In this document: positions 34,660 to 54,363 of the stretch, piece by piece
Position numbering within the stretch: the stretch's first letter is position 1
Layout: each line of letters opens with the position of its first letter
From: a virus
Length of the DNA stretch: 64,000 nucleotides
Strand: one strand, 5' to 3'
Virus record (IMG/VR): IMGVR_UViG_3300046373_000099
Coordinates: 2,383-66,382 of that record
Program-made: the position numbers and the translations under genes
Notes under the pieces: model-generated
The model's input: the letters and a program-made list of their open reading frames with translations, nothing else
Database searches by the model: none
Told to the model about the DNA's origin: nothing

Positions 34660-34945
34660 TCCTTGGTGGTGGTTTTTGGTGGGGTGGCAGGGTGGTAAAA
34701 TTATGAGGTGGTGGTGAGGTGGCGAGGTGGTTGGGTTTTCTACCTACATCCTCCTCCTTCACACCACCCTCCCCCCTAAAGGGGAGGAGGTGGTGGTGGA
34801 GAAGGAAATTTCGCAGTCGTGGTGAAGTCTCGCCACCACCCCAAAAGTGCGTTTTGAGGTGGTGGTTTCGCCACCTCTGCCACCCCACGTTTGAGGTGGT
34901 GGCGAACCACCTCTGCCACCTAGGTGGTGAGGTGGTGGCAGACAA
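34660..34945. repeat. GAGGTGG(TGG)/CCACCTC repeat cluster, putative replication origin
   Basis: Many direct and inverted copies in non-coding DNA immediately downstream of the primase-helicase. Confidence 0.65.
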
Positions 34946-34983: not shown

Positions 34984-37305
34984 TTAAGCCGCCTGAGCAG
35001 GTCGAACGTACTTTATTTTTCGACCTATGCGCTTAGGGTCGTCCTCCGGAACAACCGCAAGAATGCCGTTTCCAATCCACGATTCCAGAACCGATTTTAT
35101 CTTGCGCTTCTCTGGTGTGAGCGCCTTCGCGACGTCTATTGACGCGCCCATTGCCTCGGCGATCACGTACCCTGCCCAGTCGTCGGATTGAGCATCGAGC
35201 CTATAGTTTTGGTTTTGGAGCTTCACCAGCACATCACGCTTGGCGTCATCCGGAACGGTCTTCGCCAACTCGTCCTTGGATGGCCATTTCCATTCAGTCA
35301 CCACGCCGGCGGTGTCATGGGGGGCATCTGCAAGCATGAACTTGCTTTTAGCGCCATTGCCAAGACACACGGACTCCATCTTCCGCCAATGCTCGGTATT
35401 GTCCATCTTGGTAAGATTGACCTTGCCGTGGTGTATCCAGAAATAGCTGAATCGGTCGTCCTTCTCCATGCCGGCGCGAGTCGCCTGCTCTTCCGTCATG
35501 CGGTTTAGAACGCGAACGGAACGGGCCGCACCGATTAGGGACACGGCGCCTCGAGCGTCTTCAACCGTTGCTTCCCTGTCTGCCAGCTTGCGCAGATGGT
35601 GGACGACGTCGACGGCGCAGTTGGTATAGTCGGCAATCTGAGCCCACAGCTTCGCCACCTTGTCGATCGCGCCGTTATCGTTCTCGTTGACGCGGTGGGT
35701 AGACACGAACGGGTCGACAATCATGACATCGATGCCGAGACGTTCTATCTGTTCGACCACGGCTTCGACCACAGGCTCATTAACCTTCAGGCCGGTCTTC
35801 TTGTCCTCGTGCATGACGATAAGCTCTTGCTCTCGACCCGTGTCGAGATACAGCCTACCCTCAATATCCTCAGGCTTCAGTTTGTAGTGCACGCACGCAG
35901 CCATGATGCGCCGGTCCATTTCGTCGCGCGGGTCTTCGGCATTGAACAGCCAGACGTTCAGCCTCTCTTTCGGCTTCGTGCCGGCCAAAGGCTTGCCGGA
36001 TACCATAGCCAGAGCCTCGACAATGCTGTTGCTTGTCTTGCCTAGCCCGCCTGGTGACACGGTGACCGAGACGTACTTGCGGATGTAATGCGTGCCGAAT
36101 GCGAACTCGCGCCGCGGCAGCGTGGTCGGGTCTTTGTAGGTGAAGGGCGTGGCATGGAAGGCGCGGTTGTCATTGGCTGCCGTTGGGGACTTGCTATCCA
36201 TGATCCCGTTCGGGGTTGTTTCGGCGCTGTCAGTCACCTCGGCGGCGTTTCCGTCCCGTTCGGGAACATTTACTTCATCATTGACAGAATCTTCCTCAAC
36301 GGGAAGTTCCTTGGCCTTAGCCTTCGCAATCCCGTTGGCAATCATCCTTGATATGTCGACGAGCCGCGTATTGTCCTCGTAGTGTGTCGGCTCCGGAATA
36401 ATGCGAGGCTGCCGTTGACCGGCCGTAAGCCCGTTCCGGATTGTCCCGCAAGACTTCGGGAAGTTGCCCCACGGCTGCGCGATGGCCTGAAGCTCGCGCT
36501 CCGCCTCACTATGGGCGATGACACCCGCCCCAACGAACTGTCCGAGCGCGAAGGCTGCATCATTAAGCCGATTGTTTCGGGTGCCTTGTGGCGCGTCTGC
36601 CAGGTCAGCAAGTTCAAGTTCAATGGCGCGATTGACGTATGGCGTGTTGCCGATCGCATGCGGCTGGTACGTTGACGATGCGGTCGTGTGGGGCTTGGGG
36701 AGCAGCAATTCCAGAAGCCATTCTGGCGCGTCGGCGATCTCTGGGATCGTGGCAGAGTCTGGTGTCCACTTGTATGAGCGCCCGTCGGCCATTACGCTTC
36801 CGGCCGCCAGTACGTAACCGCCTTCAGACCTCACGTCCACGCCGCCGCCGAGCGCTCCGCGGTTGCGGGTGCCAGGAACATATTTGAAGTAGATGTGCAG
36901 CCCGTTATTTGGTGTGGTGACGCGTGCGGTCGCTGGCAGCTCCCCGTTTTCGTTCTCCATCTCTTCCAGCCACTCGAATCCGTTGGCTCCGCCTGGCTTG
37001 GCGTCGATGTCTAGCACGAACACACCCGTCTTCTCGCCCGTTGGTATGCCGACCGCACTGTTCGGATTATCCGACCACCATCGCTCCAGGATGCGCTCTG
37101 TCTTGCTGGCGCCATTAAAGCCGTTGCTCGTCCGGGGCGTCTTTTCGTTGAGAGTGATGATCTCGCCCGACGTCGGGTCGACGGTTTCTTCTGCGCCCTC
37201 TCTACATGGGAAGACTGGCCATCCGTGGGCAATGTATGATTTGGCTAGGTCGAGTGGTGTGGTGGTGGGCATGGTGTGCTGTAGTTTGAAGTTCAGTTTG
37301 GCCAT
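34984..37305 (-). CDS. Bifunctional primase-polymerase plus AAA (RepA-like) helicase
   Basis: GWPVFPC, VLDID, GLHIYF, DVRSEGGYV; Walker A SPGGLGKTS; MIVDPF. Confidence 0.9.
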   Translation of the reverse strand: MAKLNFKLQHTMPTTTPLDLAKSYIAHGWPVFPCREGAEETVDPTSGEIITLNEKTPRTSNGFNGASKTERILERWWSDNPNSAVGIPTGEKTGVFVLDIDAKPGGANGFEWLEEMENENGELPATARVTTPNNGLHIYFKYVPGTRNRGALGGGVDVRSEGGYVLAAGSVMADGRSYKWTPDSATIPEIADAPEWLLELLLPKPHTTASSTYQPHAIGNTPYVNRAIELELADLADAPQGTRNNRLNDAAFALGQFVGAGVIAHSEAERELQAIAQPWGNFPKSCGTIRNGLTAGQRQPRIIPEPTHYEDNTRLVDISRMIANGIAKAKAKELPVEEDSVNDEVNVPERDGNAAEVTDSAETTPNGIMDSKSPTAANDNRAFHATPFTYKDPTTLPRREFAFGTHYIRKYVSVTVSPGGLGKTSNSIVEALAMVSGKPLAGTKPKERLNVWLFNAEDPRDEMDRRIMAACVHYKLKPEDIEGRLYLDTGREQELIVMHEDKKTGLKVNEPVVEAVVEQIERLGIDVMIVDPFVSTHRVNENDNGAIDKVAKLWAQIADYTNCAVDVVHHLRKLADREATVEDARGAVSLIGAARSVRVLNRMTEEQATRAGMEKDDRFSYFWIHHGKVNLTKMDNTEHWRKMESVCLGNGAKSKFMLADAPHDTAGVVTEWKWPSKDELAKTVPDDAKRDVLVKLQNQNYRLDAQSDDWAGYVIAEAMGASIDVAKALTPEKRKIKSVLESWIGNGILAVVPEDDPKRIGRKIKYVRPAQAA

Positions 37306-50600: not shown

Positions 50601-50903
50601 TTAGGCCGCTCCCTTGGTTTCTGTGTGCGCACCGAAGTTCGCATAAATGATGTTGCTGCCATCGCCGGTTGGCACTGGAGCGCTGGCCTCTGTCGGCGGC
50701 TCGCCCATGAATTCCATGTGGCGCAATGTGACGCCGTGGAACGCCTTGATTTCCAGGGTATCGACGAGCTGGACGTTGTAGAACCGGCCGAATTCGGACT
50801 CGCCGACCACAATGCCGAATACCGAGCCGTTCAGGCGGCAGACGACCCAGTCGCCCTCGTCGAAATGCCGGCAGTCGCAGATGTCTTCATGGATTGAGGT
50901 CAT
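50601..50903 (-). CDS. Hypothetical protein
   Basis: ORF in early operon. Confidence 0.55.
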   Translation of the reverse strand: MTSIHEDICDCRHFDEGDWVVCRLNGSVFGIVVGESEFGRFYNVQLVDTLEIKAFHGVTLRHMEFMGEPPTEASAPVPTGDGSNIIYANFGAHTETKGAA

Positions 50904-51247
50904 GCCGCCACCCGCATCGCGTAGTCATTGACAGCACGGCCAGCCAGTTCGGCTTCGGCGTCCGGCGTGTTGTCGTTGGCGGCCAATCTCTTGACCGACA
51001 CAGGCATCATGCCGGACAGTGTCGAGCATCCGCCGTTGTGGGGCGACATGCGCGTGACGCGGTCGGGGTTGTTGTCGTTGGCGCTTTCCAGGCGAACCGG
51101 CATTGCGGTCAGGCTGCCACGGCGACGCAGGTGCTGGTAGACGGTCATGGTTTTCATTCCGACCGCCTCGGCGATCTTGCGGCAGGATGAGCCATCCGCT
51201 CTTCGAGCATGCAGGTCTGCGGACGCGGAATCTGTGATGATTGTCAT
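50900..51247 (-). CDS. HTH protein with two ANDN motifs and an ssrA-like C-terminus
   Basis: GSSCRKIAEAVGMKTMTVYQHL; ends AVNDYAMRVAA. Confidence 0.65.
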   Translation of the reverse strand: MTIITDSASADLHARRADGSSCRKIAEAVGMKTMTVYQHLRRRGSLTAMPVRLESANDNNPDRVTRMSPHNGGCSTLSGMMPVSVKRLAANDNTPDAEAELAGRAVNDYAMRVAA

Positions 51248-51325
51248 AGGGTCTCCTCTGGTGGTGTGGTGGTGAAAACGGCGGCTGGTGGCCGCAGCTA
51301 AAAATAACTTGCGCTATCCGAAATT

Positions 51326-51356
51326 ACAGTATATTATCTTTACAAAATTGTCAAGG
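51326..51356 (-). promoter_or_regulatory. Repeated sigma70 promoter/operator, copy 4 (divergent from second repressor)
   Basis: TTGACA-attttgtaaagataata-TACTGT. Confidence 0.8.
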
Positions 51357-51410
51357 CATTTTGGTGCCTCGGCCGCTTTTGCTTGCTGTGATCAACCGAA
51401 GGGACGACCC

Positions 51411-52031
51411 ATGAAAGAGAAAAAAGGCCTGCCGCGCCTCGCGCAAATGCTCATCCACCGACAGAAGCAACTGGAGGCAACTGACCGTGCCATCTGCGAA
51501 GAATATGGATGGCTGCAGCAAACGTATAACAATTGGAAAGGCGGGGCCGCTCCCCGTAGTCCGTGGTACGATTCCGTCGCAAGTTACCTCGGAGTTACGC
51601 CGCATGATGTGGAAGAGCTGGCTGAGGAAGCCAAGATTAGCAAGGGCAGCCGGAAGATTCCAAAACTGTCCGTCTATTCCGCCGCTCGCGAATACGGAGA
51701 AGTCAAAGACGCTTCGACCGGAGAGTATTTCTTTAACGCTTTCAACGTCGGACGTCGTCACATTCCCGAAGGCCGCTACGCGTTCATCGTTGATACGGCG
51801 GTAATGGAACCCTCCCTGCGGCAAGGCACTCGCGCCTTCGCAGATGGTTCCATATGGGCCAAGCCAGGTAATGAGGTCATGGTTCATGCCGATAATGGCG
51901 AAGCATGGCTCGGAGAACTCGTTTCCATGAAAGACGGCGGCGTCCAGATTCGCCAGTACAATCCGGACAGGACGTTCAGTCTGAAGGAAATCAATGCCGT
52001 GCATCCTGTCGTCCTTTCCGAGCGGATTTGA
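51411..52031 (+). CDS. Second repressor-like protein: HTH plus degenerate S24 domain
   Basis: LQQTYNNWKGGAAP HTH; YAFIVDTAVMEP lacks the catalytic Ser. Confidence 0.7.
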   Translation: MKEKKGLPRLAQMLIHRQKQLEATDRAICEEYGWLQQTYNNWKGGAAPRSPWYDSVASYLGVTPHDVEELAEEAKISKGSRKIPKLSVYSAAREYGEVKDASTGEYFFNAFNVGRRHIPEGRYAFIVDTAVMEPSLRQGTRAFADGSIWAKPGNEVMVHADNGEAWLGELVSMKDGGVQIRQYNPDRTFSLKEINAVHPVVLSERI

Positions 52032-52056
52032 CAAATCATTTTGCCCCTGCTAAATA
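52028..52056 (+). promoter_or_regulatory. Sigma70 promoter for putative sRNA
   Basis: TTGACA-17 nt-TAAATA. Confidence 0.65.
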
Positions 52057-52062
52057 CCCGCT

Positions 52063-52232
52063 GCCTGCTGTGGTGGCGGGAAGGAAATTTGGTGGGTCTC
52101 CTCGCCAAGCAGTACGAGCCTAGTTTCGACCGTTAAATGGTGGTTCTGCCTTCGGGTCGGTCGAGATGGTGGTGGGTTAATAGATTAGAGTTTGTGGAGC
52201 TTCGGCATGTAATTGCCGGAGTGTTTATTTTT
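52063..52232 (+). ncRNA. Putative multi-hairpin antisense sRNA
   Basis: Promoter; loops UGUGGUG, GGUCUCCU and UGGUGGUU; terminal hairpin CTTCGGCA..TGCCGGAG plus U-rich tail. Confidence 0.6.
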
Positions 52233-52284
52233 GCCTGCCGCCTTCCCTGTGTGCGTTTTAAACTCTTGGCAGCAGGCAAATAAG

Positions 52285-52333
52285 TGGGGCGGATTTTGAA
52301 TTTTGGTTTTCGTCGTTCAAATGGCCGCCCCCA
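52285..52333 (-). ncRNA. TIGR-like guide unit downstream of tas gene
   Basis: GGGGCGG-CCA-TTTGAACGA-cGAAAACCA-AAATTCAAA-aT-CCGCCCC. Confidence 0.75.
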
Positions 52334-52337
52334 GACA

Positions 52338-53408
52338 TCAGGCAACAGCCCGACGCCATTCAATCCAAAGGTTCCGCAGCAGACGCTTTTCAACGTACCG
52401 GTGCGCCCTCATGGAAACATGCTTTTTGTAGGATTCCTTGCCGGTTGCGGCCTCAGTCACAGGCATGTCGAGCTTGACAGCCTCTGTGCGTGCGCGGTCG
52501 GCAAAGACCTGTTGGTAATATGACAGATCTTCATTGGCCCACACGTCCTCGCCCATGACTGGACGCCACTTCCCCATTCCGCCGATGACGTGCTCGCGGG
52601 CAACGTAGGAGACGGAGCGGCGCTTCTTGTTATATCCTTCTGCAATCCAGTCTTCAGCAGGAGCGCCAGCGCCTGGGTTGCCTTGACGGTGGCCGTTGAT
52701 AACGGCGAGGCCGAGACGCTTCCATACCGCGCTAACCGATTTATACGAGCCGATATCGCCGCATTCGCCAACGATCGTTGCGAAGCTGGTGTCGCCGAAT
52801 CCCTTGACCGACTTGACCCACGAATAGATTGGAAGCTGCTTGACCAGTTTGACCAGCGACTTCTCGTAGGCGTCACGGCAAGCGGTGAGCGGGTCCATTG
52901 CGAGCAAATACGGCTGGATGCTGGCGTAGAGCGGGTGGTCAGAATCGGCGCAGACGGTGCGGTAGAGTGATTCGGTGCGCTTCCGCGCTTTAGCCTTGGC
53001 TTCGTCATCGGCGAAGTCATCGTCGGACTGCAGCGTGAGACGCAGAACGGCCTGCCCTTGCAGGGCCAGCTTCGTTTGGGCTCTGATCATTCCTTGCCGC
53101 AGGCGGTGAAGGTTGATGATCTTGTCGATGGTGTCGGTTGTTTGATCTGCGGCGACATAGGGTGCGAGGGTGATGTGGCCGGAGGCCCAAGCAGGCGGCT
53201 CGGCGGTACTGGGTTGCGCTGGGGTGATGGCCGTCTGCTTGGGATGGGTGTCCTGATGCGACGAAGCAACATTGGGCTTCTTGGCAGTTTTGGTCGCATC
53301 AGGAATGAATGTGCCAGCAGCTTGTGACGCGTGGGCTTCAACACCTTTATGGCTGCTGGCAGTTTCGAGCGCCGCGCACAAGGCTGCAGGCGAATTATCT
53401 AGGAACAT
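52338..53408 (-). CDS. Nop/IS110 C-terminal-domain protein lacking RuvC (TasA-like RNA-guided DNA-binding protein)
   Basis: Coiled coil LHRLRQGMIRAQTKL; SVKGFGDTSFATIVGECGDIGSYKSVSAVWKRLGL (IS116/IS110-type motif); no DEDD domain; AGAGGAGAC RBS. Confidence 0.8.
   Translation of the reverse strand: MFLDNSPAALCAALETASSHKGVEAHASQAAGTFIPDATKTAKKPNVASSHQDTHPKQTAITPAQPSTAEPPAWASGHITLAPYVAADQTTDTIDKIINLHRLRQGMIRAQTKLALQGQAVLRLTLQSDDDFADDEAKAKARKRTESLYRTVCADSDHPLYASIQPYLLAMDPLTACRDAYEKSLVKLVKQLPIYSWVKSVKGFGDTSFATIVGECGDIGSYKSVSAVWKRLGLAVINGHRQGNPGAGAPAEDWIAEGYNKKRRSVSYVAREHVIGGMGKWRPVMGEDVWANEDLSYYQQVFADRARTEAVKLDMPVTEAATGKESYKKHVSMRAHRYVEKRLLRNLWIEWRRAVA
53141..53361 (-). ncRNA. TIGR-like guide units embedded in the tas coding sequence (3 clear, 1 degenerate)
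   Basis: Hairpins 53186-53243, 53251-53304 and 53312-53361 (plus 53141-53183) with CCA-N9-nG(A/C)A(G/A)CCCA-N9-nG. Confidence 0.75.
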
Positions 53409-53431
53409 GGTGGTCTCCTCTGGGTTGGTGG

Positions 53432-53805
53432 TGCAGGTCTGGCGACGGCAACTTGGGTTTCGTACTACTTATGGCCAGACCTGTATGCAATTTAGTATCA
53501 ACCGGCAGGGCGCTAACCTCCTGCATCTCTTCACGCGGCTCCTCAAGAAAGGAAAAGGGCGCGCTAGTAACCTTCGGTTCATCAGGCCCAAGGTGCGACG
53601 GGAAGCCGTTCCGTCCTCGGTCGATTGCGGTGCGGCGGCGCAAACGTCATGGGTTTCTAACTAGCAGTGGCCGCCGCAATTCTTTGAATGGGTATGCAGA
53701 TCGCGGCGGTCGGCTACCGGGTTCCGCACTCTCCGCGGCCGCAATCTGCAATTTTTGGGGTGGCTAGCGCTGCCATGGTTTTCGCGTCAACACTGGCCAC
53801 CCCGA
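53432..53805 (-). ncRNA. TIGR-like stem-loop array (4 units)
   Basis: Units 53432-53485, 53631-53678, 53695-53750, 53755-53805. Confidence 0.85.
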
Positions 53806-53808
53806 CCG

Positions 53809-54363
53809 TCACACGGTCATGCCTTCGGCTTCCGCCTTAATCTTTGCCAAGTCCGCAGCCGTCAGTGCGGCGCGCATTGTCTTGGAGCCTGCCCGCTCGC
53901 CGGCACTGATAAGCCAGCGGCCCTTGCGAACCATATCGACGCCTTGTCCGAGAAAGCCGTTGCCGATCTCGACGACCTGCGTTCCGGAGAGGTCGCCAAG
54001 CTTGGTGTCGACGCCTTGCCATTTGAAAGGCATGTCGAACAACGTCTCGGTGACAATCAAACCCTGGCGCTGAGCACGGCGTTGTGCGGCGTGAACAGCG
54101 GGGGACATAGTGTGGGGAGTTTTGGTGCCGCAACTTTGTGCGGTCTCGATGCGCTTGCGCTCTTTTTGACCTACCTCATTGAGGAGGGAGCGCGCGCCGA
54201 TGCGGACGAATTCGTCGGCAATCGTGGGGAAGTTAGCAACGTAGTTGGAGATTTTCTCGACGGCGGCGTTCAAGTCGCCCTTCGCTTCGTCATACATGCG
54301 TTCAGTCACGCTTCTGGCTGTAAGGCTGGTTGCGCCGGTAACTCTTCTGGCTGCTACGTTCAT
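53809..54363 (-). CDS. Uncharacterised Tas-associated protein (184 aa)
   Basis: GAGGAGAC RBS; sandwiched between guide arrays. Confidence 0.7.
   Translation of the reverse strand: MNVAARRVTGATSLTARSVTERMYDEAKGDLNAAVEKISNYVANFPTIADEFVRIGARSLLNEVGQKERKRIETAQSCGTKTPHTMSPAVHAAQRRAQRQGLIVTETLFDMPFKWQGVDTKLGDLSGTQVVEIGNGFLGQGVDMVRKGRWLISAGERAGSKTMRAALTAADLAKIKAEAEGMTV

Follow-up and report, generated by a model that had tools for sequence, protein, structure and literature searches.

The 64,000-nucleotide stretch analysed here (positions 2,383 to 66,382 of IMG/VR virus record IMGVR_UViG_3300046373_000099; below, the window) covers almost the whole of a 66,382-bp virus record that has direct terminal repeats. 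Positions 52028-52232 of the window hold a conserved, structured RNA gene on the + strand, in the gap that follows the gene of a CI-like repressor. A sequence-only reading of this DNA had proposed an antisense small RNA (sRNA) here, with loops complementary to a ribosome-binding site (RBS) signature found throughout the phage. The parts of the gene and its immediate surroundings are given below, with the nature of the evidence in brackets where it matters.

51411..52031, + strand: CI-like repressor gene, 206 amino acids (aa) from ATG (match to PHROG phrog_4, transcriptional repressor, E = 5.3e-13)
306-bp gap, 3' of the CI-like gene: contains the RNA gene
52028..52056, + strand: promoter-like box, with a -35 element TTGACA at 52028-33, a 17-nt spacer and a -10 element TAAATA at 52051-56 (sequence)
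52064..52080, + strand: stem-loop 1 (SL1), a 5-bp stem CCUGC/GCGGG (52064-68/52076-80) and the 7-nt loop UGUGGUG (52069-75) (comparative structure)
52088..52109, + strand: stem-loop 2 (SL2), a 7-bp stem (52088-94/52103-09) and the loop GGUCUCCU (52095-102), the putative anti-Shine-Dalgarno (anti-SD) seed
52110..52118, + strand: conserved single-stranded linker (C)AGUACGAG (AGTA.G conserved in alignments A2, A4 and A6; AGUA(C/G)G in relatives)
52123..52167, + strand: stem-loop 3 (SL3), an outer stem (52123/52127-32 with 52158-67) around UGGUGGUU (52138-45) and the hairpin GCC-UUCG-GGU (52148-57)
52167..52176, + strand: fourth GGUGG tract, UGGUGGUGGG, predicted to be single-stranded (sequence and fold)
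52199..52232, + strand: intrinsic terminator, a 9-bp stem (52199-52222) with a 6-nt loop, followed by GUUUAUUUUU (terminator scan)

The TTGACA-17-TAAATA box, the four motifs (UGUGGUG, GGUCUCCU, UGGUGGUU and UGGUGGUGGG) and the terminator-like hairpin with its U-rich tail were all found where the sequence-only reading had placed them; in the terminator, the U-rich GTTTATTTTT runs from the stem to 52232. That reading had also put the motifs in hairpin loops. This held for loops 1 and 2, whereas the small stem that should close the third motif is degenerate in the window.

Relatives of the locus were collected with an alignment of homologues of the CI-like protein, which yielded 5 loci from named genomes and 47 from IMG/VR; as a lone query, the CI-like protein had found nothing in viral contigs. 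When searched with a covariance model, 51 of the 52 loci, selected solely by the CI-like protein, contained the RNA. The motif TGTGGTG was likewise present in 51 of 52, the exception in both cases (L019) being cut 39 nt past the stop codon. For 50 loci, all 360 nt downstream were available; in these, TGGTG occurred two to five times and CACCA not once. The CI-like gene is thus the usual left neighbour of the RNA gene; in the window, the -35 box contains its stop codon. A TTGAC was found between -4 and +44 nt past the CI-like stop codon in all 52 relatives, and the distance from the TTGACA box to SL1 is fixed among them. Phages that had been picked as relatives through the 356-aa gene on the other side of the gap showed no DNA similarity in the RNA gap, and have co-directional genes there instead; three of them hold a variant RNA elsewhere.

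Alignments of the relatives revealed a common architecture: promoter box, SL1, a linker A(U/A)(G/C)GAA, SL2, a second linker, SL3 and terminator. RNAalifold, run on a mixed alignment and also on over-short sequences, gave a partial structure; a 26-pair structure was then set by hand and tested. In alignment A4 (MAFFT, 17 Rhizobium-type sequences and the window), 93.0% of cells were paired, compared to 30.7-53.1% when 3' partners were slid by one to three columns. Twenty of the 26 pairs had changed on both sides, and none of 500 shuffles reached the observed values on four of five measures. Alignment A6 (49 sequences, 44 of them distinct), which is model-fitted and hence leans towards the model, had 94.6% of cells paired versus 35.5-47.0% after sliding, with double changes at 24 of 26 pairs. 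The covariance model, built on 17 sequences, had one strong match in the window, at 52059-52174 (76.3 bits, E = 3.5e-19). The fold of the single window sequence was modest (z = -2.0, with parts of loops 1 and 2 buried in stems) and the promoter was not called; for this reason, the case from the window alone is no more than suggestive. The comparative structure places UGUGGUG and GGUCUCCU in hairpin loops of the window.

Loops are conserved more than stems. In SL1, compensatory changes were seen at all five pairs with 100% of cells paired, while GUGGU is invariant in the 44 distinct sequences. In SL2, all seven pairs show compensatory changes (96.7% of cells paired) and GUCUCCU is at least 90% conserved; in alignments of relatives, the seed GUCUCCUC is borne on the 3' side of SL2 or in its loop. 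The outer stem of SL3 has compensatory changes at 8 of 8 pairs. The inner element of SL3 in relatives is CGG-GUGGUG-CCG, i.e., a loop closed by 3 bp, with the variants CAG/CUG and CGA/UCG; it is this 3-bp stem that is degenerate in the window, where the third motif, UGGUGGUU, lies within the 10-bp outer stem. The small hairpin GCC-UUCG-GGU is present in Rhizobium-type copies and in the window, and the UGGUGGUGGG tract is only partly conserved among Rhizobium-type relatives. An equivalent G+C hairpin followed by a U tract ends the relatives' copies.

The alignments contain 128 G.U cells and 5 A.C cells, and pairing amounts to 94.6% on the + strand versus 83.5% if the opposite strand is taken as the RNA. 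Since G.U exceeds A.C and pairing on the + strand is higher, the RNA corresponds to the + strand. The absence of a convincing open reading frame (ORF), noted in the sequence-only reading, was upheld by the relatives: overlapping ORFs differ in frame and start among them, indels are not multiples of three, and SL2 contains indels of many lengths. No match to Rfam 15, including phage C4 antisense RNA and alpha-proteobacterial sRNA families, was found in window positions 51000-53500 with E up to 10, or in eight related loci with E up to 1. Word searches of the open-access literature found no published description of the RNA, which is not proof of its being unpublished.

Two named phages carry the RNA. 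In Rhizobium phage 16-3, a model match (E = 1.6e-23) lies between p070, a helix-turn-helix (HTH) protein homologous to the CI-like protein, and p069, and the locus adjoins the annotated OR/Pr sites and the c repressor. In RHph_TM3_3_14B, the match (E = 2e-33) lies between genes annotated as 'S24 peptidase/repressor' and 'repressor protein C'. No RNA is annotated at the matching locus in either record. Over positions 20000-40556, the 16-3 record has no annotation named immX. Among 151 sampled host-family genomes, the RNA was detected in four with E up to 1e-5 and stricter filters, the rest counting as not found rather than absent. Such a sporadic distribution is what one expects of a prophage gene.

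The sequences exposed by the RNA are those of a leader found before phage genes, in reverse complement. The SL1 loop UGUGGUG is the complement of CACCACA, and the SL2 loop GGUCUCCU is the exact complement of AGGAGACC, in agreement with the complementarity to both leader parts claimed earlier. The distribution of the leader in the window is far from random. The pattern CACCAC-N0-20-GGAGA had 13 matches where 0.62 were expected (maximum of 3 in 100 shuffles), GAGGAGAC was present in 16 copies (1.62 expected), and CACCACA in 25 (6.94 expected). Among 39 [AG]AGGAGA sites, 26 had a start codon at Shine-Dalgarno (SD) distance and an ORF of at least 48 aa, and 12 of these 26 also had CACCAC no more than 25 nt upstream. 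The 12 two-part leaders are located at 3.5 kb, 34-57 kb and 62 kb, all of them non-structural regions; structural-block starts carry ordinary SD sequences, and the start regions of both repressor genes lack the leader (that of the CI-like gene is without CACCAC..GAGGAGAC). Just one copy of the leader in the window is reverse-oriented, and this copy belongs to the RNA gene (52103, - strand). The 16S rRNA 3' end does not match the AC(C) that follows GGAG, so ribosome pairing does not explain this part of the motif. The genes and leaders surrounding the RNA gene in the window are:

Up to 51247, - strand: early genes
50900-51247, - strand: gene of an HTH protein, the first of the divergent early operon (early block)
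51248..51274, - strand: target leader CACCACCACACCACCAGAGGAGACCCU-AUG of the HTH gene (predicted duplexes: SL2 -22.0, loop -18.6 kcal/mol)
53408 down to 52338, - strand: 356-aa gene, the 'tas' of the sequence-only reading
53409..53433, - strand: target leader CACCACCAACCCAGAGGAGACCACC-AUG of the 356-aa gene
54363 or 54570 down to 53809, - strand: next gene
54990-55685, + strand: second repressor (HTH and Peptidase_S24 matches)
59447-60646: integrase

The motif thus precedes many phage genes, 'tas' included, as had been reported. It is found again in almost every related locus, above all ahead of the first gene that diverges from the CI-like gene. In three host genomes (5.3-7.6 Mb), the leader hardly occurs outside the prophage: CCAC-N1-8-GAGGAGAC has 14, 17 and 12 matches, of which 10, 13 and 8, respectively, are located within ~56 kb of the RNA gene on the same contig, most of them within 26 kb.

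Complementarity was evaluated in a two-site test, in which unpaired RNA segments were compared to 79 heuristically called start regions with cut-offs of -18 kcal/mol or lower for SL2 and -16 kcal/mol or lower for a GUGGUG segment. Eight of the 79 regions passed both cut-offs, compared to a mean of 0.09 and a maximum of 2 in 300 letter-shuffles. With lax cut-offs (-13 and -9 kcal/mol), 27 regions were observed and 22.4 expected, no better than shuffles.

We regard the co-variation of anti-SD seed and leader across lineages as the strongest evidence. Clear seed/leader pairs were found in three lineages, GUCUCCUC/GAGGAGAC, CUCCUCGUGU/ACACGAGGAG and GUCUCUCC/GGAGAGAC; a fourth lineage is weak, and a fifth is ambiguous. 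Weak model matches in L002, L004 and L005 turned out to be a variant RNA with the SL1 loop GUGGUA, the seed CCCUCCUCGUGU and the same CGGGUGGUGCCGG element; leaders of these phages are (C)ACACGAGGAG, without AC after GGAG. Leader words were counted over whole records grouped by RNA seed, each count including the reverse complement contributed by the RNA gene itself:

First L002-type record, seed CUCCUCGUGU: ACACGAGGAG 11, GAGGAGAC 1
Second L002-type record, seed CUCCUCGUGU: ACACGAGGAG 12, GAGGAGAC 1
Third L002-type record, seed CUCCUCGUGU: ACACGAGGAG 10, GAGGAGAC 3
Window, seed GUCUCCUC: ACACGAGGAG 0, GAGGAGAC 16
Record of L012, seed GUCUCCUC: ACACGAGGAG 0, GAGGAGAC 10
Record of L030, seed GUCUCCUC: ACACGAGGAG 0, GAGGAGAC 7

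Three further lineages were drawn from the family search. In the one with seed GUCUCUCCG, 11 copies of GGAGAGAC were present in 40 kb, compared to 0-3 in other lineages, and 9 of the 11 stand before a start codon and ORF with a CCAC-rich upstream sequence. In the lineage with seed GUAGCUCCUC, leaders are GAGGAGCUAC; 40 kb contained four copies of GAGGAGCT, two of them before ORFs, and also four of ACGAGGAG. The third, with seed GACUCCUCU, has heterogeneous leaders and is ambiguous.

Expression was searched for with the Agrobacterium-type RNA, which is near-identical in ~30 loci, so that the result concerns the family and not the phage of the window. Of 22 entries listed, 20 contain part of this RNA; 8 are recorded as RNA, and the entries come from 11 studies. 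Contigs of four RNA libraries from four studies were placed on 2 kb of L030. Three libraries had a contig over the RNA (depth 48.1 in X9, 33.5 in X11 and 28.4 in X1) and a separate contig over the CI-like gene (12.9, 11.7 and 17.7, respectively). The fourth, a size-fractionated library (X12), had a single 202-letter contig with a depth of 98.7 and no mismatch, the rest of the 2-kb stretch being bare. This contig closes on itself (3821, T, 3651, with a 30-letter overlap; L030:3651-3821). It hints at a ~172-nt species extending from inside loop 1 to the foot of a second hairpin, and the closure suggests circularised or concatenated copies of a processed species of that size. Neither uncovered stretches nor the low coverage of the divergent early gene can be read as evidence, X12 having covered the RNA alone. 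Agrobacterium-type relatives are thus present in RNA libraries, with a hint of a discrete species.

Several observations concern the surroundings of the RNA gene. Homologues of the CI-like protein with 40-53% identity are found in Rhizobium, Sinorhizobium and Agrobacterium, and for this reason the host of the phage is taken to be a member of the Rhizobiaceae. The motif V-M-E-P is invariant in the CI-like protein and its 11 homologues. In S24 peptidases, the catalytic Ser is located in S-M-x-P. The CI-like protein has no S24 match in Pfam and may be a repressor unable to self-cleave. The 356-aa protein (window 52338-53408, - strand) has no match in Pfam; it matches PHROGs labelled transposase (phrog_4285, E = 1.4e-14), and its gene belongs to the early operon in related phages. 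Two more strong hairpins, at window positions 52232-52283 and 52290-52332, lie between the RNA terminator and the end of this convergent gene, and the whole gap folded as - strand gives z = -3.4; the two hairpins are possibly - strand terminators.

In relatives, a small - strand ORF with the start ATGAGAAAG and SD GGGGAGAC converges on the 3' end of the RNA (L010:3737-3943 and equivalents; p069 of 16-3, L059:3834-4001). It is located between the promoter of the main repressor and the RNA gene, and is absent from the window, where two larger genes take this place. A palindrome, ACAAATTTGT, overlaps the RNA promoter box in relatives (L010 and other Agrobacterium-type loci; 16-3, L059:3500-3520). 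It is lengthened to CTACAAATTTGTGTAG in Agrobacterium types and degenerate in the window (ACAAATCATTTTG). Its half-sites match the ACAA..TTGT of annotated 16-3 C-repressor operators, the spacer being 2 bp, not 6 bp; the palindrome may be an operator controlling the RNA. Elsewhere in the window, positions 34700-34940, a short way upstream of a large gene at 34984-37305, are densely packed with GCCACCACCTCA/GAGGTGGTGGC-like units repeated in direct and inverted orientation, and this array resembles an iteron-type origin.

We consider it probable that the element is a trans-acting anti-RBS phage RNA that silences early genes and provides a post-transcriptional second lock, and immunity, in the lysogen; promoter use, pairing in vivo, repression and immunity are the steps that we infer. 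Positions 52062-52232 (+ strand) would be the gene of a ~170-nt trans-acting sRNA with a promoter and terminator of its own. The RNA is predicted to fold into three stem-loops supported by covariation, exposing the seed GGUCUCCU and two to three GUGGUG elements. These would pair with the bipartite leader CACCAC(A)-N0-6-GAGGAGAC(C), which directly precedes the putative start codons of about a dozen or more non-structural genes. By covering the RBS, the pairing would repress translation of the whole early gene set together, while host mRNAs, structural genes and the two repressor genes, all without the signature, would be spared. Its most likely place of action is the lysogen, where it would add a second lock and confer immunity to incoming phages whose genes bear the same leader code. 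This role is favoured because of the site in the repressor module, the leader-free repressor genes, and presence in RNA-seq of ordinary cultures. Transcription from the annotated Pr of 16-3 would run through p069 into the RNA gene; a derepressed early transcript from Pr would therefore carry the perfect complement of the RNA, and could neutralise it.

A number of findings weigh against this proposal. The -10 element is poor in all lineages, and a promoter scan did not call the box, since it needs a T at the sixth -10 base and TAAATA ends in A; the promoter activity of 52028..52056 is accordingly a prediction from its sequence. The closed contig of X12 starts inside loop 1 and not at the predicted start, the contigs of X1, X9 and X11 extend 14-26 nt upstream of the -35 box, and those of X9 and X11 run past the U tract. 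Because they exceed the predicted ends, the contigs do not delimit a small RNA; moreover, the family contigs are uninformative on strand, ends and level, and DNA may be present in an RNA library. The leader is also found before genes of the lysogeny-side arm (56580 and 57192), so that a target set of lytic genes only is too narrow. An A/C-rich leader alone could act as an unstructured translation enhancer.

The pairing itself raises further difficulties. Duplex energies calculated for the whole RNA do not distinguish leader genes from other starts rich in G+C. In the RNA, loop 1 is located 5' of the anti-SD seed, yet its complement is also 5' of the SD in leaders. With the two loops in the wrong 5'-3' order, a continuous duplex of both with CACCACA..GAGGAGACC is impossible; colinearity with the leader is limited to the anti-SD loop and the downstream GUGGUG element. 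Loop 1 would have to use a second CCACCAC repeat, which many leaders have, or a different molecule. The earlier claim of an antisense sRNA directed at a phage-wide RBS signature is partly supported: the computations back a conserved structured RNA, its complementarity to both leader parts, and seed-leader co-variation. The co-variation has its own weak points: the GAGGAGCU lineage rests on just three sites besides the RNA gene, while L063 is ambiguous, with the seed GACUCCUCU, heterogeneous leaders [AC]GAGGAG[ACU], and, as the sole GAGGAGTC in 40 kb, the RNA gene itself. Finally, CGGGUGGUGCCGG is invariant in all lineages, even where leaders differ, which hints at a further, invariant partner other than the leaders.

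The main alternative, which we judge unlikely though by no means negligible, keeps the same pairing and turns the RNA into a timing device of lytic growth: as it accumulates, the RNA would shut off translation of early genes, as an RNA counterpart of T4 RegA. The presence of the leader on non-structural genes of both arms, and its lack on structural genes, fits such a role. So does phage Adephagia of the cluster K mycobacteriophages, where the single reverse-oriented start-associated sequence (SAS) is contained in the apical loop of a conserved hairpin between genes 92 and 93; according to a 2024 study (PMC11373665), late transcription appears to initiate in this gap. The location of the RNA gene in the repressor module, co-oriented with both repressor genes, speaks for the lysogen instead. 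Relatives of the RNA and the CI-like gene are found in RNA-seq of ordinary cultures, where the divergent early gene has little or no contig cover; this is a weak hint against timing, as contig depth cannot rank genes.

The remaining explanations fit the co-variation and the positional variability less well. If the RNA acted in cis, on read-through early transcript or by polymerase collision, as lambda OOP and P22 sar do, the arrangement in 16-3, where Pr and OR face away from the c repressor, across p069, and towards the RNA gene, would be expected, as would the convergence of the window - strand genes starting at 54363 and 53408. However, in L002, L004 and L005 the RNA gene lacks a CI-like neighbour and diverges directly from a gene with the leader, and cis action would need neither invariant loop motifs nor a seed that tracks the genome-wide leader consensus. 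We consider this improbable as the sole mode of action, though cis and trans modes could coexist, a read-through early transcript being a perfect sponge for the RNA. There is a similarly small chance that repeated GUGGUG hairpins titrate an RNA-binding protein of phage or host, like GGA in CsrB/RsmZ-type RNAs. The recurrence of GUGGU in loops and the invariance of CGGGUGGUGCCGG across lineages with differing leaders are what such a decoy would predict; but a decoy should share its motif with the competing mRNAs, whereas the loops are the complement (CACCA 0 versus TGGTG 2-5 in the 50 downstream regions), and seed-leader co-variation is left unexplained. It is very improbable, in our estimate, that the element is a structured 3' untranslated region (UTR) and terminator that stabilises the CI-like message, with no independent gene. 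It follows the CI-like gene in the window, in all 52 loci chosen by the CI-like protein, in 16-3 and in RHph_TM3_3_14B, and RNA contigs begin upstream of the -35 box. Yet the distance between TTGACA and SL1 is fixed while that to the stop codon is variable, no co-directional gene precedes the L002-type copies, and loops more conserved than stems are needless for a stabiliser. An sRNA derived from the 3' UTR, with the same trans function, is possible.

Beyond the trans-acting anti-RBS RNA proposed for the window, we tentatively entertain, as a possibility, a private 'ribosome-binding code' of temperate phages, in which all early genes would carry a lineage-specific SD extension. A single master anti-RBS RNA would read this code, and its seed would evolve along with it. 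Phages sharing a code would be mutually immune at the RNA level, whatever the specificity of their repressors, a new code with a new seed would found a new immunity group, and the logic may cover the SAS of cluster K. In textbooks, the choice between lysis and lysogeny belongs to repressor proteins, and each of the few immunity RNAs known protects just one operon. The small RNA described here appears to match the RBSs of the whole early gene set, and the match appears to have been kept by co-evolution in several phage lineages; as the classic rhizobiophage 16-3 carries the RNA, the proposal is easily testable at the bench. If true, it would add a post-transcriptional layer of immunity or timing, explain extended start-site motifs on phage early genes, and offer a candidate reader for SAS, described in 2011 and still called unexplained in 2024. 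It would also supply compact orthogonal RBS/anti-RBS pairs, potentially useful in rhizobia and agrobacteria.

Among the closest known systems are the immunity RNAs. P1/P7 c4 (immI) and P4 CI are small structured RNAs of immunity regions whose loops pair at two sites, located next to the RBS or in nascent early transcripts, and keep lytic functions off; each controls a single operon of the phage that encodes it and is excised from a longer transcript. The comparison, made in the sequence-only reading, stands as to logic: a phage-encoded structured RNA in an immunity region, with loops for two-site pairing. It does not extend to homology, there being no Rfam match; further differences are the about a dozen or more unlinked leaders, the anti-SD seed, and a conserved promoter box of its own. 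T4 RegA is a single protein that represses many early mRNAs at their initiation regions. The likeness is that of one phage factor and many early mRNAs, while the factor proposed here is an RNA that would act by base pairing.

In the same host group, AbcR1/2 and NfeR1 (alpha-r14) repress many mRNAs at the RBS (PMC8844928, PMC10746234). They resemble the RNA described here, being trans-acting, with C/U-rich anti-SD motifs unpaired in several hairpins. They are chromosomal and regulate host metabolism, whereas the RNA of the window is phage-borne, has additional GUGGUG elements, and its candidate targets are phage genes with a leader nearly absent from the host.

The leader has its own counterpart in SAS of cluster K mycobacteriophages, a conserved asymmetric motif that consists of an SD core and an extension unexplained by 16S pairing (Pope et al. 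2011, PMC3203893). In that paper, SAS is located a few nucleotides before non-structural start codons only, in one orientation, and is rare in the host; its reader was left open as 'either RNA or protein' (PMC3203893), and its role was still given as unknown in a 2024 paper (PMC11373665). We found one reverse-oriented SAS (12 of 13 letters) in the 432-bp gap between Adephagia genes 92 and 93 (L071:34600-34730, record 58599-58729), where it lies within the apical loop CCUCCUAUCC of a long hairpin (fold z = -5.25, 241 nt). The region is conserved in 131 Mycobacterium phage records, and the hairpin is kept in 7 of 7 aligned sequences with few compensatory changes. In DarthP, the hairpin loop differs (CCCUCCUUCCCC) while SAS remains GGGATAGGAGCCC in 13 copies, and no co-variation was observed in cluster K; an anti-SAS RNA encoded by the gene 92-93 hairpin is possible. 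Like SAS, the leader of the window is confined to non-structural genes, close to start codons, in one orientation and rare in the host; it differs in sequence and host, and in that a matching RNA has been identified here.

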